Shown: positions 521-58,366, counted from the first letter of the stretch. The stretch is 64,000 bases of DNA from Phenylobacterium sp. (GCF_035944335.1 NZ_DASZBG010000012.1:8612-72611), one strand, 5' to 3'. Notes: a model not told the origin generated them from the letters alone. Program-made: numbers and translations.

Positions 521-2710
521 TCAGGTCTTCACGAACGGCAGGCTGGTGGTCGCGGGCTGCCCCATGGCCAGCAAGGCGTTGGCGACGGCGGGCGCGATCA
601 CCGGCGTGCCCGGTTCGCCCACCCCGCTGGGCGGATTGGCCGACGCGACGAAATAGGTCTCCACCGTCGGCGCCTCGGAATTGCGCAGCACGCGATAGCC
701 GTCGAAGTTGGCCTGCTGCACCTCGCCGTCCTTGAGCTCGATCTTGCCGTAGAGCGCCGCCGAGAGGCCGAGGCAGGTGCCGCCCTCCATCTGCGCCTTC
801 ACCTGGTCCGGCGCGATGACCGTGCCGCAGTCGATGGCGGTGACCACGCGGCCCACCTTGGGCACGCCGTTCTCCAGCTTGACCTCGGCCACCTGGGCCA
901 CGACTGAGCCGAAGCTCTCATGCACTGCGACGCCGCGGGTCCAGCCGGCGGGCGCCGGACTGCCCCAACCCGCCTTCTCCGCGGCCAGGTTCAACACCGC
1001 CAGGTGCCGGTTGGCGCCGGCCTTGGCGTAGAGCGCACGGCGGTACTCCACCGGGTCCTTGCCGGCCTTCTTCGCCAGCTGGTCGATGGTGTGCTCCATG
1101 ACGAAGGCGGTGTGGGTCGCCCCCACCGAGCGCCACCACAGCACCGGTACGCCGACCTCGGCATTGATCACCTGCCCGTCGACCACCGGCGTCGCCTTGA
1201 GGTAGGGCGATCCCTTGGCGCCCTCGACGGAGGTGTCGTCGATCTTCGGCGTGCCCATGGGCGAGCCCTTCATGATGGACTGGCTGACGATGCGGTGGCG
1301 CCAGGCGGCGGGCATCCCGTCGGCGTCGGTGGTGATCCGCACCGCATGGTGCACCATCGGCCGGTAGTAGCCGGCGCGCATGTCGTCCTCGCGGGTCCAG
1401 ACCAGCTTCACCGGGCGACCGCCGCCGACGTGCTTGGCGATGTGAACGGCCTCGGCCACGTAGTCGGACTGGAAGTTGGTCCGCCGCCCGAACGAGCCGC
1501 CGGCGTAGAGGGTCTCGACCTCGATATTGCCCGGCAGGTTGCCGACGACCTTGGCGGCGTTGAGCTGATCGAGCGTCGGCGACTGCGAGCCGTGTATCAG
1601 CTTGCAGCTCTGACCCTTGACGATGGCCACGCAGTTCAGCGGCTCCATGGCCGCATGCGCGAGATAAGGGAAGTCGTAGGTGGTCTCGATGGCGGCCGTT
1701 CCCCCGGACGCCTGAGCCCCGCCTCTGGCGTCGAAGGCCTGCCAGGCGGCCTTGTCCTGCGGCTGGATCTTGCCGGCGGCGAGGTCGGCGTAGCTCTTGC
1801 GGATCTGGTCGGTCGAGCGTTTCTCGGCCTTGGCGAAGTCCCACTTCACCTTCAACGCATCGCGGCCCTGGCGGGCGGCCCAGGTGTTGTTCGCCACCAC
1901 GGCCACGCCGTTCGGAACCTGGAACACATCGACCACGCCGGCGACCTTGCGCGCGGCCGCGTCGTCCACCGAGGCCACGGTCGCGCCGAACTTCGGCGGG
2001 TGGGCGACCATCGCGGTCAGCATATTCGGCAGGTGGACGTCCTGGGTGTAGGGCGCCGTGCCCGTGCTCTTCAGAACGCTGTCCTTGCGCCGGACCTTGT
2101 CCGTGCCGATCAGGGTGAAGCTCTTGGGGTCCTTCAACACAGGCGTCTGCGGCGGTTTCACCTTGGCCGCGTCGGCCACCAGGTCGCCGAAGCGCGCCTG
2201 CTTGCCACTGCCGGCGTGGGTGACGACGCCATTGGCGACGGTGATCTGGCCGGCCGGGGCGTTCCACCGGGTCGCCGCGGCCTGTACGAACATGGCCCGC
2301 GTCGCCGCGCCGGCCGTGCGCAGCTGGGCCCAGGAGTTGGCGATGGCGGAGGAGCCGCCGGTCCCCTGCACGCCCATCAGCGAGTTGGAATAGACCTTGG
2401 CGTTGGCCGGCGCGAACTCGACCTTCACCTTGTCCCAGTCGGCGTCCAGTTCCTCGGCGACGATCGCCGCCAGGCCCGCGTGGTTGCCCTGGCCGAACTC
2501 GATGTGCTTCGACACCACGGTGACGATCCCATCGGGCGCGACCTTCACGAACGGCCCGAAGGCGCCGAAATCGTGCGGCGCGCCCAGCGCGAGGATATCG
2601 GCCGGCGAGCAGCCGACCACCAGGGCGCCGCCGGTCAGCGTTGCGCCGATCACCAGGGCCTCGCGGCGGGTGGCGCCGGTGGAGGCGAGGCGGTTCAGAG
2701 GCTTGTTCAT
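521..2710 (-). CDS. Molybdopterin-binding large (beta) subunit of an IorB/aldehyde-oxidase-type oxidoreductase, TAT-type signal
   Basis: This is the last 730 aa of the 914-aa track ORF. The start is set at MNKPLNRLASTGATRREALVIGATLTGGALVVGC (twin-Arg signal). It lies 14 nt downstream of the FeS subunit gene, and the body looks like xanthine-dehydrogenase-family Moco subunits. Confidence 0.85.
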   Translation of the reverse strand: MNKPLNRLASTGATRREALVIGATLTGGALVVGCSPADILALGAPHDFGAFGPFVKVAPDGIVTVVSKHIEFGQGNHAGLAAIVAEELDADWDKVKVEFAPANAKVYSNSLMGVQGTGGSSAIANSWAQLRTAGAATRAMFVQAAATRWNAPAGQITVANGVVTHAGSGKQARFGDLVADAAKVKPPQTPVLKDPKSFTLIGTDKVRRKDSVLKSTGTAPYTQDVHLPNMLTAMVAHPPKFGATVASVDDAAARKVAGVVDVFQVPNGVAVVANNTWAARQGRDALKVKWDFAKAEKRSTDQIRKSYADLAAGKIQPQDKAAWQAFDARGGAQASGGTAAIETTYDFPYLAHAAMEPLNCVAIVKGQSCKLIHGSQSPTLDQLNAAKVVGNLPGNIEVETLYAGGSFGRRTNFQSDYVAEAVHIAKHVGGGRPVKLVWTREDDMRAGYYRPMVHHAVRITTDADGMPAAWRHRIVSQSIMKGSPMGTPKIDDTSVEGAKGSPYLKATPVVDGQVINAEVGVPVLWWRSVGATHTAFVMEHTIDQLAKKAGKDPVEYRRALYAKAGANRHLAVLNLAAEKAGWGSPAPAGWTRGVAVHESFGSVVAQVAEVKLENGVPKVGRVVTAIDCGTVIAPDQVKAQMEGGTCLGLSAALYGKIELKDGEVQQANFDGYRVLRNSEAPTVETYFVASANPPSGVGEPGTPVIAPAVANALLAMGQPATTSLPFVKT

Positions 2711-2724
2711 GATCCCATCCCCTC

Positions 2725-3234
2725 TCAGTTCGTCGCCGCGGCGGCCGGCGCCGGCGGGACGTCGAGCGGCGGCGCGTTTGCGGCCACCTGCGGCAGGCCG
2801 GCGGCGTCCTTGATGGCCGCGCGGATGCGCTGGTAGGTGCCGCAGCGGCAGATGTTGCCGTCCATGGCCCCGCTGATCTCGTCGTCGGACGGCTTCGGCT
2901 TGGTGGCCAGCAGGGCGACGGCGCTCATGATCTGGCCGGACTGGCAGTAGCCGCACTGCGGCACGTCGTGCTTGACCCAGGCGACCTGCACCGGGTGCGT
3001 CCCGCCCAGTCCCTCGATGGTGGTGATCTTGGCGGTCCCGAGCACCGAGATCGGGGTCGAGCAGGCGCGAATCGGCTGGCCGTCGGCGAGCACGGTGCAG
3101 GCCCCGCACTGGCCGACCCCGCAGCCATACTTCGAGCCGGTCATGCCGAGCTCGTCGCGCAGCACCCAGAGCAGGGGGGTGTCCGGCGCGGCCGCGACGC
3201 TCACCGGCTTTCCATTGATCTGCAGCGTCGCCAT
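2725..3234 (-). CDS. (2Fe-2S)-binding small subunit of the Mo oxidoreductase
   Basis: [11 protein letters not shown] and CGYCQSG...CRCGTY cluster motifs are present. The start is moved to MATLQINGK, with SD GAAGGGG 5-6 nt upstream. Confidence 0.85.
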
Positions 3235-3364
3235 GCGAACCCCTTCCGAACCAGCCATCGATCATCCTAACGCCGTTCAGACTCGAGCGTAAATGCCGCC
3301 ACGGTTGCCGCCACGCCGCCGAAGCCGCTAGTTACGCAGCGACGCAGCGATCCCGGGAGACACC

Positions 3365-18103: not shown

Positions 18104-18715
18104 TCACCGGACGGTGCTTAGCCGCTCCGCATCGGCGAGGATAGAGCGCATTGCTTCGCTCGCCGGCTCCCCGTCGCGGTCGTAGTCCCCGCCCTCGAGG
18201 ATCGCATGCAGCGCCCGGCGCGCCCGGCTCACCCGGCTCTTCACCGTGCCCACCGCGCAGCCGCAGATGTCGGCCGCCTCTTCGTAGGCGAAGCCGCCGG
18301 CGCCCACCAGGATCAGCGCTTCGCGCTGTTCGGGCGGCAGCATGGCCAGGCCCTGGCGCAGTTCGTCCAGCGCCACCGGGGCTTCCGGATCGTCCACCGC
18401 CACCAGGGTCCGCTCGGCGGCCTCCTGGTCGAGCTGGCTCTGGCGCCAGGAGCGGCGCTTCTCGGAATAGAACTGGTTGCGCAGAATCATGAAGGTCCAG
18501 GCCTTCATGTTGGTGCCCATCTGGAAGCTCGCCCGGGCGTCCCAGGCCTTCATCATCGCGTCCTGGGCGAGGTCGTCGGCCGCCGCGGGGTCGCCGCAGA
18601 GGGTGCGCGCAAAGGCCCGCAGGTGCGGGATGAGCTGCACGAGCTCGCGCTTGAAGGCTTCGTCGTCGGGCCGGGGCTCCGAGGACGGCGCCCGCTGTGG
18701 CTGGGCCTCGGGCAT
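18104..18715 (-). CDS. sigT: ECF sigma factor of the EcfG group (general stress response sigma)
   Basis: 203 aa with sigma-70 regions 2 and 4 (LIPHLRAFARTLCGDPAAADDLAQDAMMKAW; REALILVGAGGFAYEEAADICGCAVGTVKSRVSRAR). Its ATG overlaps the nepR stop (TGATG). Confidence 0.9.
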   Translation of the reverse strand: MPEAQPQRAPSSEPRPDDEAFKRELVQLIPHLRAFARTLCGDPAAADDLAQDAMMKAWDARASFQMGTNMKAWTFMILRNQFYSEKRRSWRQSQLDQEAAERTLVAVDDPEAPVALDELRQGLAMLPPEQREALILVGAGGFAYEEAADICGCAVGTVKSRVSRARRALHAILEGGDYDRDGEPASEAMRSILADAERLSTVR

Positions 18716-18903
18716 CAGCCCTTCTCCGAGGCGCGGCTGTCGGCCTTGCGCAGGATGTCGAGGAATTCGTCCGGGACGTCCTCGTTGACCACCTGGTCGA
18801 ACATCTGTCGCAGGCGCACGCCAATCGCCTGCTGGCGCAGGCGGGCTTCGTCCAGGGCGGCGGACGACTTGCGTCGTTCGCCAGGAGGCCGTTGTTCTAT
18901 CAT
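18715..18903 (-). CDS. nepR: Anti-sigma factor NepR
   Basis: C-terminal motif RLRQMFDQVVNEDVPDEFLDILRKAD. The start is set at ATG 18903 (62 aa) because the track TTG start at 18963 overlaps the -10 box of its own promoter. Confidence 0.8.
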   Translation of the reverse strand: MIEQRPPGERRKSSAALDEARLRQQAIGVRLRQMFDQVVNEDVPDEFLDILRKADSRASEKG

Positions 18904-18961
18904 GTTACTGGCGTGCCGCTCTCGCGGCGGCCGCCCCCTCTTGGCATTCTCGTTGTCGCTC

Positions 18962-18986
18962 AACGTCCGACTCCGCGCCAGGTTCC
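18962..18986 (-). promoter_or_regulatory. EcfG/SigT-type promoter (GGAAC-N16-CGTT) for nepR-sigT-phyK
   Basis: The plus strand reads AACG-tccgactccgcgccag-GTTCC. This is the classic autoregulated promoter position. Confidence 0.8.
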
Positions 18987-32776: not shown

Positions 32777-32890
32777 GGCCGACGGCGACATAAAAAGAGC
32801 CGAATACCGGTGTAACCGGCTCGCTCCCGATCGCGAATTGGCCTCGAAGCCTGGCGATGGCAGGATCGCGGGCCCGAGGAGGCCAAGCCG

Positions 32891-33175
32891 ATGACCAAGA
32901 CCCAGACGACGCTCGCCGCCGCCGCGGTGCTCGCCCTGATGGCCGGCGCCGCGGCCGCCGCCGACGAGAAGACCGACGCCGCTCCGGCCGCCAAGGAGAA
33001 ATGCTTCGGCATCGCCAAGGCGGGCCAGAACGACTGCATGTCCGGGCCCGGCACCTCTTGCGCCGGCACCGCCAAGACCGACTACGACGGCAAGGCCTGG
33101 AAGGAGGTCCCGAAGGGGACCTGCGTCACCATCAAGACGCCGAAGGGCATGGGCTCGCTGACCCCGAAGGCCTGA
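32891..33175 (+). CDS. bufA: DUF2282-family exported 4-Cys precursor peptide (bufferin BufA1-like)
   Basis: A Sec signal ([24 protein letters not shown]) is followed by [58 protein letters not shown]. There are exactly four Cys. The symbol is tentative. Confidence 0.8.
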
Positions 33176-33185
33176 TGAGACGCCC

Positions 33186-34034
33186 ATGCGCCAGGGCCTG
33201 ACCGCCGGGCTGAGCCTGAAGCCGCCGCACGTCGCCGAGGCGCTGGCCGCGACAGCGCAGGGCCTGTGGTTCGAGGTCCACCCCGAGAACTACATGGCGG
33301 CCGGCGGGCCGCGGCTGGCGGGGCTGGCGGCGATCGCTGAACGCCATCCGATCTCGCTGCATGGCGTCGGCCTGTCCCTGGCCGGCGATGCGCCGCCCGA
33401 CGCCGCGCACCTGGCGGCGCTGAAGCGACTGGTGGACCGCTTCGATCCGGCCCTGGTGTCCGAGCACCTGGCCTGGTCGCGAAGCGCCGGGCGCTATCTG
33501 CCGGATCTGCTGCCGTTCCCGCGTACGGCGGAGGCGCTTGGCCGTATCGCCGAGAATGTCTCACGGTTTCAGGATGCGATCGGCCGCCCGGTGCTCATCG
33601 AGAACCCCGCGCTCTATCTGCCCCTGGCCGGCCATGAGCTGCCGGAGACCGAGTTCCTCGCCGAGCTGGTCCGCCGGACCGGCTGCGGCCTGCTGGTCGA
33701 CGTCAACAACGTCTTCGTCAGCGCGCACAATCTCGGCTACGCCGCCGAGGCCTATCTGCAGGCCCTGCCGGCCGAGGCGATCGGGGAGATCCACCTGGCC
33801 GGTCACACGGCCGACCCGCAGCTCGGCGGCGAGCTGTTGATCGACAGTCATGACGCGCCGGTCGCGGCCGCCGTCTGGCGCCTCTACGAGCGGCTGATCG
33901 GGCGGATCGGGCCGCGGCCGACGCTGATCGAGCGGGACGACAACCTGCCGGCGTTCGCCGAGCTGATGGCCGAGCGCGCGCGGGCCCAGGCCATACTGGT
34001 CCGCGCCGCCGCACCGGTGGTCGAACATGTCTGA
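33186..34034 (+). CDS. bufB: DUF692 / MNIO-family (multinuclear non-haem iron oxidase, MbnB-like) enzyme
   Basis: GLSLKPPH...WFEVHPENY...SLHGVGLSL...VSEHLAW...IENP...VDVNNVFVSAHN...IHLAGH...IERD. It lies 10 nt after the precursor gene. Confidence 0.85.
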   Translation: MRQGLTAGLSLKPPHVAEALAATAQGLWFEVHPENYMAAGGPRLAGLAAIAERHPISLHGVGLSLAGDAPPDAAHLAALKRLVDRFDPALVSEHLAWSRSAGRYLPDLLPFPRTAEALGRIAENVSRFQDAIGRPVLIENPALYLPLAGHELPETEFLAELVRRTGCGLLVDVNNVFVSAHNLGYAAEAYLQALPAEAIGEIHLAGHTADPQLGGELLIDSHDAPVAAAVWRLYERLIGRIGPRPTLIERDDNLPAFAELMAERARAQAILVRAAAPVVEHV

Positions 34035-34791
34035 CCTCGCCCGCTTCCAGACCGCTTTCGCCGAGGCCCTCAGCGGCGATGTCGCCGGCCTCGCGCCCTG
34101 GATCGCGCCGGAGGCTGCGCCGCGCTTCGCGGTCTATCGCAACACGGTCGCCAAGGGCTGCGCGGACGCCGTCGCCGCGCAGTTCCCGACGCTCGCGAGC
34201 GTGGTGGGCGAGCCCTGGCTGCGCGCCGCCGCGGCGCTGTTCGCCCGCGCTCATCCGCCGCTCAGCGCCAGTCTGGCGGACTACGGCGAGGGCTTCCCGG
34301 CCTGGCTGGCGGCCTTCCCGCCGGCCGCGGACATGCCGTGGCTCGCGGGCCTCGCCCGCATCGACTGGGCGCGCGGCGAGGCGCTGTTCGCCCGCGACCT
34401 GCCGCCGCTGCGCGCCGAGGCGGTCGCGGCGCTGCCGGCCGACGCCTACGTCGGCCTGGCCGCTGAGCTGCACCCGGCGGCGCGCGTCCTGCGCTTTGCC
34501 GACGGGGCTCCCAGCCTGTGGCGCGCCCTGCAGGGCGACGATCCGCCGGCCGATGTCGAGCTCTCGCCGGAGCCGGAGGGGTTGCTCCTCACGCGCCCGG
34601 ACTTGGAGGTCCGCACCGAGCTCTTGAGTCCCGGCGGTCTCGGCTTCCTGGACGCCTGCCGCGCCGGGCTGAGCCTGGCGGCGGCCGGCGAGGCCGCGCT
34701 CGAAGCCCAATCGGACCTGAGGCTCGCCGACACCTTCGCCGCCTTCATCGCCGCCGGCGCCTTCGCGCGCCTCGTTCCCATCGTCATGTGA
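34027..34791 (+). CDS. bufC: DUF2063-family partner protein (MbnC/BufC-like)
   Basis: MSDLARFQTAFAEALSGD...FAVYRNTVAKGCADAVAAQFP is a typical DUF2063 N-terminus. There is an 8-nt overlap with the DUF692 gene. Confidence 0.8.
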   Translation: MSDLARFQTAFAEALSGDVAGLAPWIAPEAAPRFAVYRNTVAKGCADAVAAQFPTLASVVGEPWLRAAAALFARAHPPLSASLADYGEGFPAWLAAFPPAADMPWLAGLARIDWARGEALFARDLPPLRAEAVAALPADAYVGLAAELHPAARVLRFADGAPSLWRALQGDDPPADVELSPEPEGLLLTRPDLEVRTELLSPGGLGFLDACRAGLSLAAAGEAALEAQSDLRLADTFAAFIAAGAFARLVPIVM

Positions 34792-34803
34792 GATACTGAT
34801 CCC

Positions 34804-35382
34804 ATGAACACTCGCCTCTTCGCGGCCATCGCGGCCGCCGCCATCTTCTCCGCCCAGGCCGCGCCCGCGGCGCAGGCGCTGAAAACCGCCGTCTTCGCCG
34901 GCGGCTGCTTCTGGTCGGCCCAGCACGACATCGAGCACACGCCGGGCGTGGTGAAGGTCGCGGTCGGCTATGCGGGCGGCACGCGGCCCGGCCCGAACTA
35001 CGAGAACCACGAGGGCTATCTGGAATCGATCCAGGTCACCTACGACCCGGCCAAGATCAGCTATCCCAAGCTGGTGGACGCCTTCTTCCACCACATCGAC
35101 CCGACCGACCCCGACGGCCAGATCTGCGACCGCGGGCCTACCTATCGCACCGCGGTGTTCGCCGCCGACCCCGCCGAACGCCAGGCCGCCGAACAGGTGA
35201 AGGCCCAGATCGGCAAGGAACTGCGCCATTCGATCGCCACCGAGATCCGCCCCGCCGCCCGTTTCTGGATGGGCGAGGACTACCATCAGGACTACGCGCG
35301 CAAGAACCCGGGCGCCTACAACGCCTACCGCGTCGGCTGCGGGCGCGACGCTACCTTGAGGGTGGTCTGGGGCGGCCGGTGA
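34804..35382 (+). CDS. msrA: Peptide-methionine (S)-S-oxide reductase MsrA with N-terminal signal peptide (exported)
   Basis: Signal MNTRLFAAIAAAAIFSAQAAPAAQA, then the catalytic motif FAGGCFWS, GY.E...V.YDP and DYHQDY. It starts 12 nt after bufC. Confidence 0.85.
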   Translation: MNTRLFAAIAAAAIFSAQAAPAAQALKTAVFAGGCFWSAQHDIEHTPGVVKVAVGYAGGTRPGPNYENHEGYLESIQVTYDPAKISYPKLVDAFFHHIDPTDPDGQICDRGPTYRTAVFAADPAERQAAEQVKAQIGKELRHSIATEIRPAARFWMGEDYHQDYARKNPGAYNAYRVGCGRDATLRVVWGGR

Positions 35383-45347: not shown

Positions 45348-47483
45348 ATGACGAGGGTGACGATGCGCTGGCTTGCCGCGATCCTGGCGTTCCTGGCCGT
45401 TTCGACGGCCGCGGCGGCCGCCCCGATCAACACCGGTCACCTGAGCGCCGAGCTCGTGTCGCAGACCCAGGGGATCGCGCCGGGCCAGACGGCCTATATC
45501 GCCCTGCATCAGAAGATCCAGCCGGGGTGGCACACCTATTGGCGCAACGCCGGCGACTCCGGCGAGCCGACGCGGCTGAAATGGACCCTGCCGTCCGGCT
45601 GGAAGGCCGGCGACATCGTCTGGCCGACGCCCAGGCGCCTGCCGGTCGGTCCCCTGGTCAACTACGGCTACGAGGACGACGTCGTCTTGCCCGTCGCCAT
45701 CACCGCGCCCGCCGACGCCAAGCCCGGCCAGGCCATCACCCTGAAAGCCGCCGCCTCGTTCCTGGTCTGCAAGGATATCTGCGTGCCCGAGGACGCGACC
45801 CTGCAGATCGCTCTGCCGGTGGTGGCGGGGCCAGCCGCCACCGATCCGCAGTGGGGCCAGAAGATCGCCGCGACGCTGGCCGCCACGCCGAAGCCCGCCG
45901 GCCTCACCGCGGTCTTTCAGAAGAAGGGCGCCATGGTCGCGCTGGCGATCGTCGGCGCGCCGCTGAAGGGCGCGGAGGTCCATGACGTCTACTTCTATCC
46001 TTTCGACTCGACCGTCATCGACCATGCCAAGCCGCAGCGCGTCGAGCGCGGCCCGGACGGCCTGACCCTGACGCTCACCCCCGGCTACGCCTTCCAGGGC
46101 GCGGCCGCTCCCGCCGCCATGGGCGGGGTGCTGGCGCTCGACGGCAAGGCCTACGAGGTCGCCGCGACCTCCGGCCCGCCGCCGGCCGGCGCTGCGGGCC
46201 TGGGGCCGCCGGCGCCCAAGGGCGCGGCCGGCGGGGCTGGCCTCGGCCTCATCACCGCGGCGGTGTTCGCCTTCGTGGGCGGTTTGATCCTCAACCTGAT
46301 GCCCTGCGTCTTCCCGATCCTCGCCATGAAGGCCGCCTCGCTCGCGGCCCACGGCGGCGGCGCGCAAGCGGGGGAGGCGCGCAGGCACGGCCTGGCGTTC
46401 GGGGCCGGGGCGCTGATCACCTTCCTGGCCCTGGCGGGCCTGCTGATCGGCCTGAAGGCGGCCGGCGCGGCGATCGGCTGGGGCTTCCAGCTGCAGTCGC
46501 CGCCGGTGGTGGCGGTGCTCGCCCTCCTCATGCTGGCGGTGGCGCTCGACCTTTCCGGGGTGTTCGAGGTCGGGACCTCGCTGCAGGGCCTGGGCTCCGG
46601 CGCCGCGTCGCGCGGCGGCCTGGTCGGCGACCTCTTCACCGGCGCGCTGGCCGTGGTGGTCGCGGCCCCCTGCACGGCGCCGTTCATGGGCGCATCGGTG
46701 GGCTGGGCCCTAACCCAGCCGGCGGCGGCCGCCCTGACCGTGTTCCTGGCGCTGGGCATAGGCTTCGCCATGCCGTTCGTGGCGGCGACCTTCTGGCCGG
46801 GCCTGCTCGCCCGGCTGCCGAAGCCCGGACCCTGGATGGACGCCTTCCGCAAGGCGCTGGCCTTCCCGATGTACGGTGCGGCCGCCTGGCTCGCCTGGGT
46901 GCTGACCATCCAGGCCGGCGAGACCGCGCTCGCCCGCATCTTCATCGCCGCCATCGTACTGGCGCTGGCCGCCTGGTTGGCCGGCGCCGCCCAGCGCAGC
47001 GCCGCCCGGGGTCAGCGTCCCGTGGCGCTCGTCTCGTTCGCCGCCCTCCTGGGCGCCGCGGCCCTGGCCGGCGTCATCTGGCCCGCCTACGCCGAAACCT
47101 CCGGCGACAGCGCCGGGGCCAAGTCCGCTGACGCCGCCTGGGAGGCCTACAGCCCCGAGCGCCTCGCCGACCTGCGCGCGCAGGGCCGGCCGGTGTTTGT
47201 CAACTACACCGCCGCTTGGTGCGTCTCCTGCCAGGTAAACGACCGCGTGGTGATCTCCACCCGGTCGGTGGCCGAGGCCATGAAGGCCGATAAGGTGGTC
47301 TATCTGAAAGCCGACTGGACCAAGCGCGATCCGGTGATCGCCGCCGAGCTCGCCCGCTACGGCCGGGCCGGGGTGCCCCTCTATCTGGTCTATGGCGCGA
47401 ACGGCGGCGAGCCGCAGGTCCTGCCTGCCATCCTCACCCGGGGCGTGGTCCTGAGAGCCTTGGAGGCCGCCGCGAAGGGCTGA
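45348..47483 (+). CDS. DsbD/ScsB-family transmembrane thiol:disulfide reductase (N-terminal periplasmic domain - TM core - C-terminal thioredoxin)
   Basis: Signal peptide and a periplasmic domain with the FLVCKDICVPE motif. The TM core has Cys residues in MPCVFPIL and APCTAPF. The C-terminal Trx domain has WCVSC. ATG at 45363 is an alternative start. Confidence 0.85.
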   Translation: MTRVTMRWLAAILAFLAVSTAAAAAPINTGHLSAELVSQTQGIAPGQTAYIALHQKIQPGWHTYWRNAGDSGEPTRLKWTLPSGWKAGDIVWPTPRRLPVGPLVNYGYEDDVVLPVAITAPADAKPGQAITLKAAASFLVCKDICVPEDATLQIALPVVAGPAATDPQWGQKIAATLAATPKPAGLTAVFQKKGAMVALAIVGAPLKGAEVHDVYFYPFDSTVIDHAKPQRVERGPDGLTLTLTPGYAFQGAAAPAAMGGVLALDGKAYEVAATSGPPPAGAAGLGPPAPKGAAGGAGLGLITAAVFAFVGGLILNLMPCVFPILAMKAASLAAHGGGAQAGEARRHGLAFGAGALITFLALAGLLIGLKAAGAAIGWGFQLQSPPVVAVLALLMLAVALDLSGVFEVGTSLQGLGSGAASRGGLVGDLFTGALAVVVAAPCTAPFMGASVGWALTQPAAAALTVFLALGIGFAMPFVAATFWPGLLARLPKPGPWMDAFRKALAFPMYGAAAWLAWVLTIQAGETALARIFIAAIVLALAAWLAGAAQRSAARGQRPVALVSFAALLGAAALAGVIWPAYAETSGDSAGAKSADAAWEAYSPERLADLRAQGRPVFVNYTAAWCVSCQVNDRVVISTRSVAEAMKADKVVYLKADWTKRDPVIAAELARYGRAGVPLYLVYGANGGEPQVLPAILTRGVVLRALEAAAKG

Positions 47484-48109
47484 TGCTGACCCGCAGGATT
47501 CTGCTCGCCGCGGCTGGATTGGCGGCGGCCTTTCCCGCCCTCGCCGCGCCGGAGCTGAACGCCCCCGCGCCGGCGTTCCGCGCGACCGACGAGACCGGCA
47601 AGACGCGGTCGCTCGAGGATTTCAAGGGCAAGATCGTGGTGCTGGAATGGACCAGCGACGCCTGCCCTTACAGCCACAAGCACTACGATTCTGGCAACAT
47701 GCAGCGCCTGCAGGCCAAGGCGCGTCGCGACGGCGTCGTCTGGCTGACGGTAATGACCGCCCCGCCTCGCTCGGCGGAATTCATGACGCCCGCCGAGGTG
47801 GTCCGCTGGAAGCGCAAGGTGAAGAGCCACGCCACCGCGGTGTTGATCGACGACGACGCCAAGGTGGCCCGCGCCTACGAGGCCAAGACCACGCCGCACA
47901 TGTTCATCGTCGATCGGGCGGGGCGGCTGGTCTACATGGGCGGAATCGACGACCGGCCCTACGTGGACCCCGCCAGCCTCAAGGGCGCCACCAACTATGT
48001 GGCCCTGGCGCTCGCCGACCTGAAGGCGCATCGGCCTGTTGCGCAACCGGTGACCCGACCCTACGGCTGCAGCGTTAAGTACGCCCCGACTGCTCCCTTC
48101 GGGGGCTGA
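47483..48109 (+). CDS. Exported thioredoxin-fold protein, PRX-like1 type with SxxC (SDACPY) active site
   Basis: An RR-containing signal (MLTRRILLAAAGLAAAFPALA), the redoxin fold (APAFRATDETGKTRSLEDFKGKIVVLEW) and the C-terminal PYGCSVKY motif. The start overlaps the dsbD-like stop. Confidence 0.75.
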   Translation: MLTRRILLAAAGLAAAFPALAAPELNAPAPAFRATDETGKTRSLEDFKGKIVVLEWTSDACPYSHKHYDSGNMQRLQAKARRDGVVWLTVMTAPPRSAEFMTPAEVVRWKRKVKSHATAVLIDDDAKVARAYEAKTTPHMFIVDRAGRLVYMGGIDDRPYVDPASLKGATNYVALALADLKAHRPVAQPVTRPYGCSVKYAPTAPFGG

Positions 48110-55937: not shown

Positions 55938-56053
55938 AGATGCAATTCACCCTGAGATGGTTTGGACGCGACCATGCCCCGCGCGCGCCGGTTTGAGACC
56001 TTACTTTTCGCTCATGATTGCGGCGAGCCGAGGACGCAATCGTCGGCGCGACG

Positions 56054-56515
56054 TCATGCCCCGCCCGCGGCATGCGGCGGTCCGACGCCGGAGCCGACGG
56101 CGAAGGCCACCGGCAGCCGACGACCGTCGGAGAAGACCAGGGTCGCGGGAAGCCGATCGCCGGGCTTCAACGCCCGGCCCAGGTCCACGAACATCAGGTG
56201 ATATGCCCCCGGCGCGAAAACCACCGCGCCGCCCGCCGGGATCTCGATGCTGGGCTGGGCGGCCATGCTCATGACGCCGTGGTCGAGACTCGATCGATGC
56301 ATCTCCACGCGGCGCGCGGCGGGGCTTTCGACCCGCGCCAGGGCCTTCGCGGTCCGGCCGCGGTTGACCAGCAGCATGTAGCCCACGCCGTTTCCGCCGG
56401 CGACGGCCGGCCGGCTCCACGGCTCGCGAACCTCCACCCGGCTCGGGCCAGGCTTGGCAACGGCCGCCGGCGCCACGGCCAGCGCCATACAGGCAAGCAG
56501 GATCGGACGACGCAT
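56054..56515 (-). CDS. Periplasmic copper chaperone PCu(A)C (DUF461)
   Basis: The start is at MRRPILLACMALAVAPAAVA, with SD GAGGAG upstream. It has the copper motif region VEMHRSSLDHGVMSM...PGAYHLMF. The upstream 97 aa of the track ORF were rejected. Confidence 0.8.
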   Translation of the reverse strand: MRRPILLACMALAVAPAAVAKPGPSRVEVREPWSRPAVAGGNGVGYMLLVNRGRTAKALARVESPAARRVEMHRSSLDHGVMSMAAQPSIEIPAGGAVVFAPGAYHLMFVDLGRALKPGDRLPATLVFSDGRRLPVAFAVGSGVGPPHAAGGA

Positions 56516-57151: not shown

Positions 57152-58366
57152 ATGAAGTTCAAACTCCTGGCGGGAGCCGCCTTGGCCGCGCTCTTCACCG
57201 CGTCCGGCGCCGCTGCTGAAGTCGGCTGGTATGGCGCGGCTGATATTGGCTATCACTGGCCAGAGCCCATGCGGGCCACATCGTCCAACATCGCCGCCAA
57301 CGGCATTCCCTATATCTGGGACTTCAACCAGAAGAACGATTGGACCGGCTTCGCGCGCCTGGGCTACCAGGTCAGCGATCACTGGCGCGTCGAGCTGGAA
57401 GTCGGCTACCGCCCCGGCGACATCAAGTCGGTCCTCGGCGGGACCAACCAAGCCGTCATCGGGCTCTGCACCCCCGGCGTGATCCGTTCGGCTGCGGCCC
57501 CGAACTGCGGTTCGCCGACCGGCGACATCAACTCCTGGACCGTGCTGGGCAATGTCATCTACGACATCATGCCCAATTCGGCGCTCGATCCGTTCATCGG
57601 CGCCGGCATCGGCGTGAACTCGATCGCAGTCCACACGACCGGCCAGTTCTCCAACGTCACCGGCGTGATCACCCCCCTGGGCGGCGCCAATCCCGCCTTC
57701 CAGAACCTGACGGTCAGCGACAACGACACCGTGTTCGCCTGGCAAGTGCTGGCGGGCGTGGCGTGGAAGGCGACCGATCGCCTGAACGTCGACCTGACCT
57801 ACCGCTACCTCAGCGGTGCGGACATGACCTTCACCTCGGTCGGTTCGTCTCCGGGTGGCCTGCAGCCGGGCAACTTCAAGGGCAAGTACAAGGACGACTC
57901 GGTGACGCTCGGCCTGCGGTATTCGTTCGCCGCACCGCCGCCGCCGCCGCCGCCTCCGCCGCCTCCGCCCCCGCCGCCGCCTCCCCCGCCGCCTCCGCCT
58001 CCGCCGCCGCCGCCTCCGCCGCCGGCCTTCGAGGCGAAGCAGTTCATCGTGTACTTCCCGTTCGATCAGTACATCCTGACGCCGGAAGCGCAGCAGGTGG
58101 TGCAAGAGGCCGCGACCTACGCCAACAACGGTCACGCGACCAAGGTGGTGGTGGTCGGTCACACCGACACCTCGGGTTCCGGCCCCTACAACATGCGTCT
58201 GTCGGAGCGCCGCGCGAAGGCGGTGGCCGATGCGCTGGTCGGCCTGGGCGTCGCCCAGACCGCCCTGTCGGTCGACTGGAAGGGCAAGACCCAACCGGCC
58301 GTCCAGACCGGCGATGGCGTGAAGGAACCGCTGAACCGTCGTTCGACGATCGACATCAACTTCTAA
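57152..58366 (+). CDS. Two-domain OmpA-family outer-membrane protein (N-terminal beta-barrel, poly-Pro linker, C-terminal OmpA peptidoglycan-binding domain)
   Basis: Signal MKFKLLAGAALAALFTASGAAA, a barrel with alternating aromatic strands, a 30-Pro linker, then VVVVGHTDTSGSGPYNMRLSERRAKAVADAL. Confidence 0.9.
   Translation: MKFKLLAGAALAALFTASGAAAEVGWYGAADIGYHWPEPMRATSSNIAANGIPYIWDFNQKNDWTGFARLGYQVSDHWRVELEVGYRPGDIKSVLGGTNQAVIGLCTPGVIRSAAAPNCGSPTGDINSWTVLGNVIYDIMPNSALDPFIGAGIGVNSIAVHTTGQFSNVTGVITPLGGANPAFQNLTVSDNDTVFAWQVLAGVAWKATDRLNVDLTYRYLSGADMTFTSVGSSPGGLQPGNFKGKYKDDSVTLGLRYSFAAPPPPPPPPPPPPPPPPPPPPPPPPPPPPPPAFEAKQFIVYFPFDQYILTPEAQQVVQEAATYANNGHATKVVVVGHTDTSGSGPYNMRLSERRAKAVADALVGLGVAQTALSVDWKGKTQPAVQTGDGVKEPLNRRSTIDINF
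57935..58024 (+). repeat. Uninterrupted run of 30 proline codons (CCG/CCT/CCC) inside the ompA-like gene
   Basis: Counted codon by codon between GCA (57932) and GCC (58025). It is in frame and coding. Confidence 0.95.

Follow-up and report, generated by a model that had tools for sequence, protein, structure and literature searches.

A four-gene locus at positions 32891-35382 of a 64,000-nucleotide (nt) stretch of Phenylobacterium sp. DNA (GCF_035944335.1, NZ_DASZBG010000012.1:8612-72611; this whole 64-kb stretch is referred to as the window) carries the bufferin genes bufA, bufB and bufC followed directly by msrA, which encodes a peptide methionine-(S)-sulfoxide reductase with a predicted signal peptide. 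Bufferins belong to the RiPPs, peptides that are made on ribosomes and modified after translation. The locus is probably a Buf1 bufferin operon that is expressed from an extracytoplasmic function (ECF) stress promoter of the ECF16 type, is co-transcribed with the exported msrA, and was reduced from a larger arrangement in which sigF-nrsF lies opposite bufABCD, with bufD coding for DoxX, and msrA follows. An initial annotation of the window had proposed a bufferin-type cluster in which msrA takes the place of the usual doxX gene. The features of the locus are as follows:

32777-32890, plus strand: 114-nt intergenic spacer separating bufA from the upstream CoA-transferase B gene, apparently the remainder of a divergent sigF/bufA promoter region
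32812-32837, plus strand: ECF16 (sigmaF-type) promoter motif GTAACC-N16-CGAA, exact consensus match
32891-33175, plus strand: bufA, DUF2282 Buf1 bufferin precursor, 94 amino acids (aa); PF10048, 86.9 bits (cut-off 22.4)
33186-34034, plus strand: bufB, multinuclear non-haem iron oxidase (MNIO, DUF692) bufferin maturase, 282 aa; PF05114 (MbnB_TglH_ChrH), 329 bits
34027-34791, plus strand: bufC, DUF2063 partner of the MNIO (a chaperone resembling a RiPP recognition element, RRE), 254 aa; PF09836, 72 bits
34792-34803, plus strand: 12-nt bufC-msrA junction, the putative scar where relatives have doxX and an msrA-proximal ECF-type promoter
34804-35382, plus strand: msrA, peptide methionine-(S)-sulfoxide reductase, 192 aa; PF01625 (PMSR), 168 bits
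35351-36904, minus strand: convergent PMT_2-family glycosyltransferase gene (PF13231, PF02366), the downstream boundary of the unit, belonging to the conserved backbone around it

The coordinates and strand of the four genes, together with their spacing (10 nt between bufA and bufB and 12 nt between bufC and msrA, with bufB and bufC overlapping by 8 nt), confirm the architecture given in the initial annotation, and the 8-nt overlap implies translational coupling of bufB and bufC. All four open reading frames (ORFs) exhibit a third-position G+C content (GC3) of 0.89-0.96 in a window of 70% G+C and are therefore regarded as real genes. Profile searches matched each of the proposed families, i.e., DUF2282, DUF692 and DUF2063, as well as PMSR, and the motifs ascribed to the products were all recovered (KEKC, NDC, TSC and GTC in BufA; HPENY, HLAGH and IERD in BufB; GGCFWS in MsrA). 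BufB scored 361.6 bits against the NCBIfam model MNIO_BufB, whose equivalog cut-off is 310, and shares 63-76% identity with BufB of Caulobacter, Phenylobacterium, Pseudomonas and others (72-75% with Caulobacter species), while BufC shows a weak additional match to HvfC. Proteins identical to the four products are deposited under the consecutive accessions HEV2530710.1-HEV2530713.1 of a Phenylobacterium sp. assembly, and two of them are named in UniRef/RefSeq, the precursor as “BufA1 family periplasmic bufferin-type metallophore” and the enzyme as “MNIO family bufferin maturase”; the bufferin identification is already present in public annotation.

The precursor matched the BufA2 model only weakly (24 bits, cut-off 60), as expected of a Buf1 precursor. 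It contains exactly four cysteines, Cys38, Cys49, Cys57 and Cys78, which align with invariant cysteines in 14 homologues from five orders, including Buf1 precursors of Caulobacter, Brevundimonas, Pseudomonas, Cupriavidus and Variovorax, and exactly four cysteines were counted in 81 of 83 BufA homologues. The four-cysteine DUF2282 signature reported for the 94-aa product is thereby upheld. A Sec signal peptide is predicted at approximately residues 1-24, with a lysine-containing n-region, a 17-residue h-region rich in alanine and leucine, and a c-region AAA/AD (the slash marks the predicted cut); the N-terminal maximum of Kyte-Doolittle hydropathy is 2.57 in an 11-residue window. The bufA start codon is preceded by a good Shine-Dalgarno sequence, GAGGAGG. 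In the Caulobacter system, the central cysteines of BufA1 become 5-thiooxazoles through the action of BufB and BufC, the outer cysteines form a disulfide, and the Sec-exported bufferin binds both Cu(I) and Cu(II) (PMC11626156). Judged by all defining features that can be tested at the sequence level, among them the profile matches, the four cysteines and the adjacent bufB and bufC, the locus is a genuine Buf1-type bufferin cluster. This membership stands without DoxX, because DoxX proved dispensable for both Buf1 modification and the copper phenotype (PMC11626156). By homology, thiooxazole modification and copper binding would also be expected of the BufA peptide encoded here.

Two further observations concern the buf genes. 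The metagenomic contig L081 (L numbers designate the contigs and loci used for comparison) is otherwise 99-100% identical to the window and differs by a 1-nt indel (GGG-CC versus GGGCCC) located 13-14 nt into bufB (window 33186-33200, L081 681-696). With the indel, BufB is predicted to start not at the ATG at 33186 but at one that overlaps the stop codon of bufA, which yields 286 instead of 282 aa. The P. soli sequence backs the start found in the window, and the difference may represent an assembly error or a strain polymorphism. In addition, bufA is duplicated, in tandem or nearby, in L002 (9271-9966), L005, L008 and L019; the two copies of L002, which derives from P. aquaticum, encode 100 and 102 aa with four cysteines each.

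The relatives used for comparison come from two scans. A BufB scan of genomes yielded 80 loci from Caulobacteraceae, Burkholderiales, Pseudomonas and others at 63-76% identity, and an MsrA scan of metagenomes contributed 80 more. In 71 of the 73 BufB loci with enough downstream sequence, doxX is located immediately after bufC, and in the remaining two this slot is held by a radical-SAM gene or a convergent transporter gene. The absence of doxX is therefore unusual for the sub-family. The initial annotation was correct on this point, as no DoxX homologue was detected in the 64-kb window by tblastn with two Phenylobacterium DoxX queries. A doxX gene located elsewhere in the window, fused to a neighbor or misannotated was also looked for and was ruled out by the negative tblastn search, the 12-nt spacer and the intact C-terminus of BufC.

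The accompanying proposal, that msrA occupies the place of doxX, is contradicted by the gene order of close relatives. In the neighborhood survey, msrA was present near only four of the 80 BufB loci, all of which are syntenic with the window as defined by a CoA-transferase upstream and the convergent PMT_2 glycosyltransferase downstream, and no msrA adjoining a Buf1 cluster was found among these 80 loci outside the Phenylobacterium clade. In P. soli (L083), the order is CoA-transferase A, CoA-transferase B, nrsF and sigF on the opposite strand, bufA, bufB, bufC, doxX (PF07681), msrA and the convergent PMT gene, and the same layout exists in L002, L010 and L013; the DoxX gene situated between bufC and msrA in P. 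aquaticum encodes 154 aa. Including L110, five loci thus carry doxX between bufC and msrA, with 495-564 nt separating the latter two, and nrsF and sigF are located between CoA-transferase B and bufA in L083, L002, L010, L022 and L108. Locus classes were counted among non-redundant relatives with at least 900 nt upstream of msrA: five show bufC-doxX-msrA, five in addition to the window show bufC-msrA without doxX, two show sigF next to msrA without buf genes, 12 have msrA immediately after the CoA-transferase AB genes and possess neither sigF nor buf, and msrA is found in other contexts in 24. The arrangement with sigF directly beside msrA and without buf genes was identified in three lineages, L085 (with the near-identical L086-L088), L106 and L115, and nrsF is present wherever the contig reaches it. 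The convergent msrA/PMT pair is kept in most relatives, with or without buf, and its 3' ends overlap in several of them.

Because doxX and msrA coexist in five relatives and msrA is also found alone at the same site, msrA is not a DoxX substitute. Instead, as judged from these gene orders, msrA is a resident neighbor of the buf genes, and doxX was deleted rather than replaced. The bufC-msrA spacers of the DoxX-less loci all differ in length (12, 17, 32, 53, 83, 113 and 222 nt; 12 nt in the window), and the longest of them, in L108 (5539-5762), contains a frameshifted doxX remnant that matches DoxX residues 26-66. These differences and the remnant point to repeated loss of DoxX through deletion or decay. 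In a neighbor-joining tree of MsrA sequences, the locus states are mixed across the branches, the full cassette is present in the deepest ingroup branch (L010), and the MsrA of the window is sister to that of P. soli L083, again a full-cassette locus. The simplest reading of this pattern is that the window represents a reduced derivative of the sigF-nrsF/bufABCD arrangement with msrA.

The tight packing of msrA in the slot after bufC could also be taken to mean that MsrA is a dedicated bufferin accessory, which either assumes the redox role of DoxX or repairs oxidized methionine and sulfur centers of the peptide (Met50, Met87). Met50 directly follows Cys49 and Met87 is located within the conserved GMGSL tail, whose GMG motif occurs in 49 of 83 BufA homologues; furthermore, a methionine on the beta-sheet face of Caulobacter Buf1 is perturbed by Cu(II) (PMC11626156), and DoxX-family proteins have been tied to oxidative and thiol stress (PMC12452194). 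However, NDCM is found in only six of the 83 homologues, and the copper-near methionine of Caulobacter is not conserved, its position reading W-K-E-V in the window. The five relatives with both doxX and msrA, the persistence of the msrA orthologue in dozens of buf-less loci and the lack of msrA beside Buf1 clusters outside the clade among the 80 BufB loci likewise argue against a dedicated accessory, which is considered highly improbable.

The second element of the proposed reduction concerns regulation. The motif GTAACC-N16-CGAA extends from 79 nt to 54 nt before the bufA ATG and is the sole exact match in the window, all matches with one mismatch falling inside coding regions. The underlying sigmaF consensus was defined in Caulobacter by rapid amplification of 5' cDNA ends (5'RACE; PMC3511200) and proposed for ECF group 16 as a whole (PMC3420878), and an RpoE7-dependent DUF692/DUF2063 operon of Sinorhizobium meliloti has the promoter ATGTAACA-N16-CGAAT (PMC6180224). 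In 64 of 82 related loci, the 200 nt preceding the first bufA contain an exact GTAACC, which starts 36 to 172 nt (mostly 76-123 nt) before the gene; it is followed after 16 nt by CGAA in 49 cases and by CGTA in 11, the latter mostly from Caulobacter/Caulobacteraceae. The motif is conserved from Caulobacter to Pseudomonas and Burkholderiales, and the bufA promoter of the window is accordingly predicted to be active under an ECF16 sigma factor.

Relatives carry sigF-nrsF divergently at the position of this promoter. In those that retain sigF, the sigF/bufA intergenic region contains diverging motifs, GGTTAC toward sigF and GTAAC(C/G) toward bufA; the intergenic region of the window keeps the bufA-side motif with an A-rich stretch just upstream of it and has no sigF-side motif. 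No SigF or NrsF homologue was detected in the 64-kb window by tblastn with queries from the closest relatives. Consequently, the earlier statement that no ECF regulator is visible holds for the genes but not for the control region, where the exact ECF16 motif precedes bufA, and a sigma factor using this promoter would have to be encoded outside the window.

Several observations weigh against a reduced, still ECF16-controlled operon. Neither sigF nor nrsF was found in the 6.6 kb beyond the left end of the window. L091, L093 and L117 have bufABC-msrA and are devoid of both sigF-nrsF and doxX; they also show no ECF16 motif before bufA, and regulation therefore appears labile in the sub-clade. The MsrA tree is unbootstrapped and was built from one short protein, and the signal peptides of BufA and MsrA were assigned from sequence features alone. 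As a separate observation, only a short distance separates the CoA-transferase B gene from bufA in L091, L093 and L117, and their bufABC genes may either receive read-through transcription from the CoA-transferase operon or not be expressed.

Taken further, the loss of two flanking pieces relative to P. soli, i.e., sigF-nrsF and doxX, might have left bufABC as a decaying remnant that is misregulated or non-functional. The missing promoter motif of the three sister loci, the complete loss of buf in many relatives and the 1-nt indel polymorphism near the bufB start are all compatible with such decay. The window itself, however, has four intact ORFs of high GC3, a BufB above the equivalog cut-off, an intact set of four cysteines and an exact promoter consensus. 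Moreover, the experiments in Caulobacter showed that DoxX can be dispensed with (PMC11626156), and Caulobacter buf2 depends on sigmaF although it is unlinked to sigF (PMC3511200). A decaying remnant is thus very unlikely, and a reduced operon that is still under ECF16 control remains the preferred reading.

The promoters of msrA orthologues provide the evidence for its fusion to bufABC. For 41 non-redundant loci in which no buf or doxX gene precedes msrA, the 150 nt upstream of the gene were inspected on the coding strand. An ECF16-like motif, GTAAC[CG]-N15-17-CG[AT][AC], was found in 16 of these loci, mostly starting 68-72 nt before the msrA ATG, and GCATCC-N15-18-CGTA(T) was found in 18 at approximately 51-83 nt from msrA, including L085, L106, L115, L118, L121, L124, L127-L129, L133, L134, L136 and L145. 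On the opposite strand, neither motif occurred in any of the 41 loci, and shuffled sequences gave means of 0.07 and 0.03. The window lacks the GCATCC-type motif, which is similar to TGATCC-N16-CGTA, the type of site used by ChrR-type ECF sigma factors in oxidative stress (ECF11; PMC5507510), and may by this similarity belong to a ChrR-type sigma factor. Loci that retain doxX often have one or both ECF-type motifs in the doxX-msrA spacer. The GCATCC type was seen upstream of msrA in L002, L109 and L110, the spacer of L002 containing GCATCC-N17-CGTA. The motifs upstream of msrA orthologues and in doxX-msrA spacers suggest that msrA was ancestrally an ECF-dependent unit of its own.

In the window, neither the 12-nt gap between bufC and msrA nor the last 140 nt of bufC contains an ECF-type motif, which suggests that the msrA promoter was lost along with doxX and that msrA was thereby joined to the bufABC transcript. 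Between bufC and msrA, a sigma70 promoter or a terminator was likewise considered, and none was predicted. Co-transcription of bufABC and msrA is therefore the expected outcome. At the downstream end, the 3' ends of msrA and the PMT_2 gene overlap by 32 nt (35351-35382) and no terminator-like structure is predicted. An unrelated feature was noticed upstream of some msrA orthologues in non-syntenic contexts (L118, L126, L129, L133, L134 and L145): a perfect palindrome, TGTTATGATATAACA(TAA), is located approximately 70-110 nt before the gene and presumably represents an operator for the regulator of a divergent neighbor.

The same comparison bears on whether the adjacency is incidental, msrA being a backbone gene beside a mobile or variable sigF-nrsF-bufABCD island, without any relation to bufferin and expressed by read-through or from an unrecognized promoter inside bufC. 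The 12 non-redundant relatives in which msrA follows CoA-transferase AB without sigF or buf, the 24 in other contexts, the retention of the msrA/PMT pair regardless of buf and the restriction of nearby msrA to four syntenic loci among 80 would all be expected on these grounds, as would the use of GCATCC-N15-18-CGTA rather than an ECF16-like promoter by about half of the buf-less msrA loci. Yet the ECF16-like motif is present at a conserved distance (~68-72 nt) in 16 of 41 buf-less loci, and three lineages retain sigF beside msrA after the loss of buf. In addition, the 12-nt spacer is too small for a promoter and the end of bufC lacks an ECF-type motif, and exported Msr proteins share an ECF regulon with DUF692/DUF2063 operons in independent organisms (PMC3420878, PMC2893595, PMC3511200). 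An incidental adjacency is unlikely, and the link between msrA and the bufferin genes through a common ECF-controlled unit is favored.

MsrA scored 144.7 bits against TIGR00401 (cut-off 108), and its best match in the PDB is the M. tuberculosis (Mycobacterium tuberculosis) enzyme 1nwa (E = 1e-32), with residues 1-26 lying outside the MsrA fold in the alignment. The N-terminus reads MNTR, LFAAIAAAAIFSA and QAAPAAQA, with the predicted cleavage site before LK, and follows the n-h-c layout of Sec signal peptides over residues 1-25, in which neither a twin-arginine motif nor a lipobox cysteine was found. A similar n-h-c N-terminus is present in 70 of 77 MsrA orthologues. The exported MsrA with a GGCFWS active site described in the initial annotation is thus supported by a conserved, predicted cleavable Sec signal peptide, which suggests a periplasmic location. 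Of 78 sequences, 76-78 retain Cys35 (catalytic, within GGCFWS), Cys108 and Cys179. Cys179 is situated five residues past the column aligned with the cysteine of the C-terminal YTCHF segment of M. tuberculosis MsrA, which we take to be the resolving cysteine of that enzyme.

A periplasmic MsrA would depend on an electron donor, for which two adjacent genes, 10 kb downstream of msrA, come into consideration:

45348-47483, plus strand: DsbD/ScsB-like membrane electron transporter (Pfam DsbD_N, DsbD_TM, Thioredoxin_7)
47483-48109, plus strand: thioredoxin-fold protein (Pfam AhpC-TSA, Redoxin), with a one-base overlap with the preceding gene

The DsbD/ScsB reductase mentioned in the initial annotation is therefore located, and the pair (45348-48109) is a candidate for the supply of periplasmic reductant to MsrA. 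No ECF16 motif was found upstream of this pair, and a search for a further motif serving other genes of the window was equally negative; because of this absence, the link to MsrA is that of a candidate. The two genes appear to resemble the ScsB-peroxiredoxin pairing of Caulobacter (PMC3322552).

A comparison with known systems places the locus among several ECF-controlled relatives. One of them is buf1 of Caulobacter vibrioides (CCNA_03363-03366; PMC11626156, PMC3511200), which shares the four-cysteine Sec-type DUF2282 precursor, the MNIO, the DUF2063 protein, the gene order and the promoter GTAACC-N16-CG(A/T)A. In contrast to buf1, the window lacks bufD (DoxX) and an adjacent sigF-nrsF and has the gene of a putatively exported MsrA 12 nt after bufC, whereas no msrA is present within 10 kb of buf1 in Caulobacter loci. 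In that organism, sigmaF controls buf1, buf2 and YedY/MsrP (PMC3511200), and the periplasmic methionine sulfoxide reductase of the regulon is this molybdoenzyme, encoded at a different locus. P. soli and P. aquaticum share synteny, the buf genes and an orthologous msrA (82% and 73% identity, respectively) with the window; unlike the window, both keep sigF-nrsF and doxX, and P. aquaticum has two tandem bufA genes. In the bufferin survey of PMC12452194, the core consists of precursor, MNIO, DUF2063 and DoxX genes, with other genes occurring “in extremely low proportions.” No mention of msrA or PMSR was found in bufferin cluster surveys, including that of PMC12452194, whose 10-bp intergenic criterion would exclude an msrA at a distance of 12 nt.

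Outside of Caulobacteraceae, the EcfF/OsrA system of Bradyrhizobium japonicum is likewise of the ECF16 group, with a GTAAC-type promoter, and includes three methionine sulfoxide reductases, among them the signal-peptide-bearing MsrA Blr7043, together with a co-regulated DsbD-like/thioredoxin pair that was proposed to supply electrons to MsrA in the periplasm (PMC3420878). It differs in that no DUF2282, DUF692 or DUF2063 genes are reported for the regulon and the msr genes form transcription units of their own instead of being joined to a RiPP operon. In meningococci, the sigmaE regulon is limited to the operon of the sigma factor itself, including a DUF2063 gene, and msrA/msrB (PMC2893595, PMC3511200), and a DUF2063 gene (NGO1945; PMC3511200) and exported MsrA/MsrB are thus placed under one sigma factor (Ecf) in Neisseria. 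Here, however, the Msr protein is a three-domain thioredoxin-MsrA-MsrB fusion whose gene is not linked to the sigma operon, a ZAS protein and not NrsF acts as anti-sigma factor, and the promoter consensus is another one. The Cupriavidus metallidurans gig operon and the RpoE7 operon of S. meliloti are ECF16-controlled, metal-induced DUF2282/DUF692/DUF2063(/DoxX) operons as well (PMC12452194, PMC6180224), but they have no associated msrA and possess either DoxX or a fourth gene equivalent to it.

These precedents qualify the suggestion that methionine sulfoxide repair is linked to the peptide or to copper and oxidative stress. The connection with stress is reasonable and known at the level of the regulon (PMC3420878, PMC2893595, PMC3511200); the peptide-specific part finds no such backing. 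The coupling of bufferin and MsrA is probably one of a shared envelope-stress regulon, not of peptide-specific tailoring. In the proposed model, copper, metal or oxidant stress would release an ECF sigma factor of the sigmaF type whose gene is located elsewhere in the genome and which would then initiate transcription from the promoter at 32812-32837. BufB and BufC would turn Cys49 and Cys57 of BufA into 5-thiooxazoles in the cytoplasm; BufA would be exported by the Sec machinery, its signal peptide removed and the Cys38-Cys78 disulfide formed, and the mature peptide would buffer periplasmic copper. MsrA, exported by means of its own signal peptide, would reduce methionine-(S)-sulfoxide in envelope proteins and be recycled via Cys108/Cys179 and a periplasmic thioredoxin-like donor. 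The deletions of sigF-nrsF, doxX and the msrA promoter would have made msrA dependent on the bufA promoter.

Further genes of the window with a possible bearing on stress or copper are:

18107-18715, minus strand: ECF sigma factor gene of the EcfG type (Sigma70_r2/r4_2, PhyR-like sigma domains)
approximately 56051-56515, minus strand: PCu(A)C-family gene (PF04314), 154 aa, from genes called on Logan contig L169, which is identical

The EcfG-type gene is the only ECF sigma factor gene in the window and, together with an adjacent NepR anti-sigma gene (18104-18963, minus strand), forms an alphaproteobacterial general stress response module. It was considered as the regulator of bufA and ruled out by its NepR neighbor and the lack of a SigF match in the tblastn search. 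The second gene is the PCu(A)C copper chaperone that the initial annotation had noted elsewhere in the window; it is transcribed divergently from an OmpA-like gene (57152-58366), upstream of which it is located. Near the left end of the window, a long ORF at 521-3265 resolves into two genes (521-3258, minus strand) for the [2Fe-2S] and molybdopterin-binding subunits of an enzyme of the aldehyde-oxidase/xanthine-dehydrogenase type, and a full molybdenum-cofactor biosynthesis cluster is located just beyond this end (L171).

The understanding of bufferin chemistry is unchanged by this locus, and the operon rearrangement is a minor one. Had MsrA nevertheless become a functional component of the bufferin system, for which the chance is rated as very small, by assuming the redox-protective role of DoxX or by keeping Met50, Met87 or the sulfur ligands of the peptide reduced, the metallophore would be recyclable under copper-driven oxidative stress. 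In the Phenylobacterium clade, an exported three-cysteine MsrA and a bufferin are combined in one ECF-controlled envelope-stress locus, which would add a third alphaproteobacterial genus to those in which copper buffering is paired with periplasmic methionine sulfoxide repair in a regulon; this regulon link is already documented by the precedents of Bradyrhizobium, Neisseria and, with MsrP, Caulobacter. The DoxX-less variants that exist in nature, comprising at least five further lineages of which one has a doxX remnant, agree with the dispensability of DoxX and could be used as natural controls for its function. The locus thereby provides a worked example of how an apparently novel RiPP accessory gene may prove to be a resident neighbor that was drawn into the operon by deletion.

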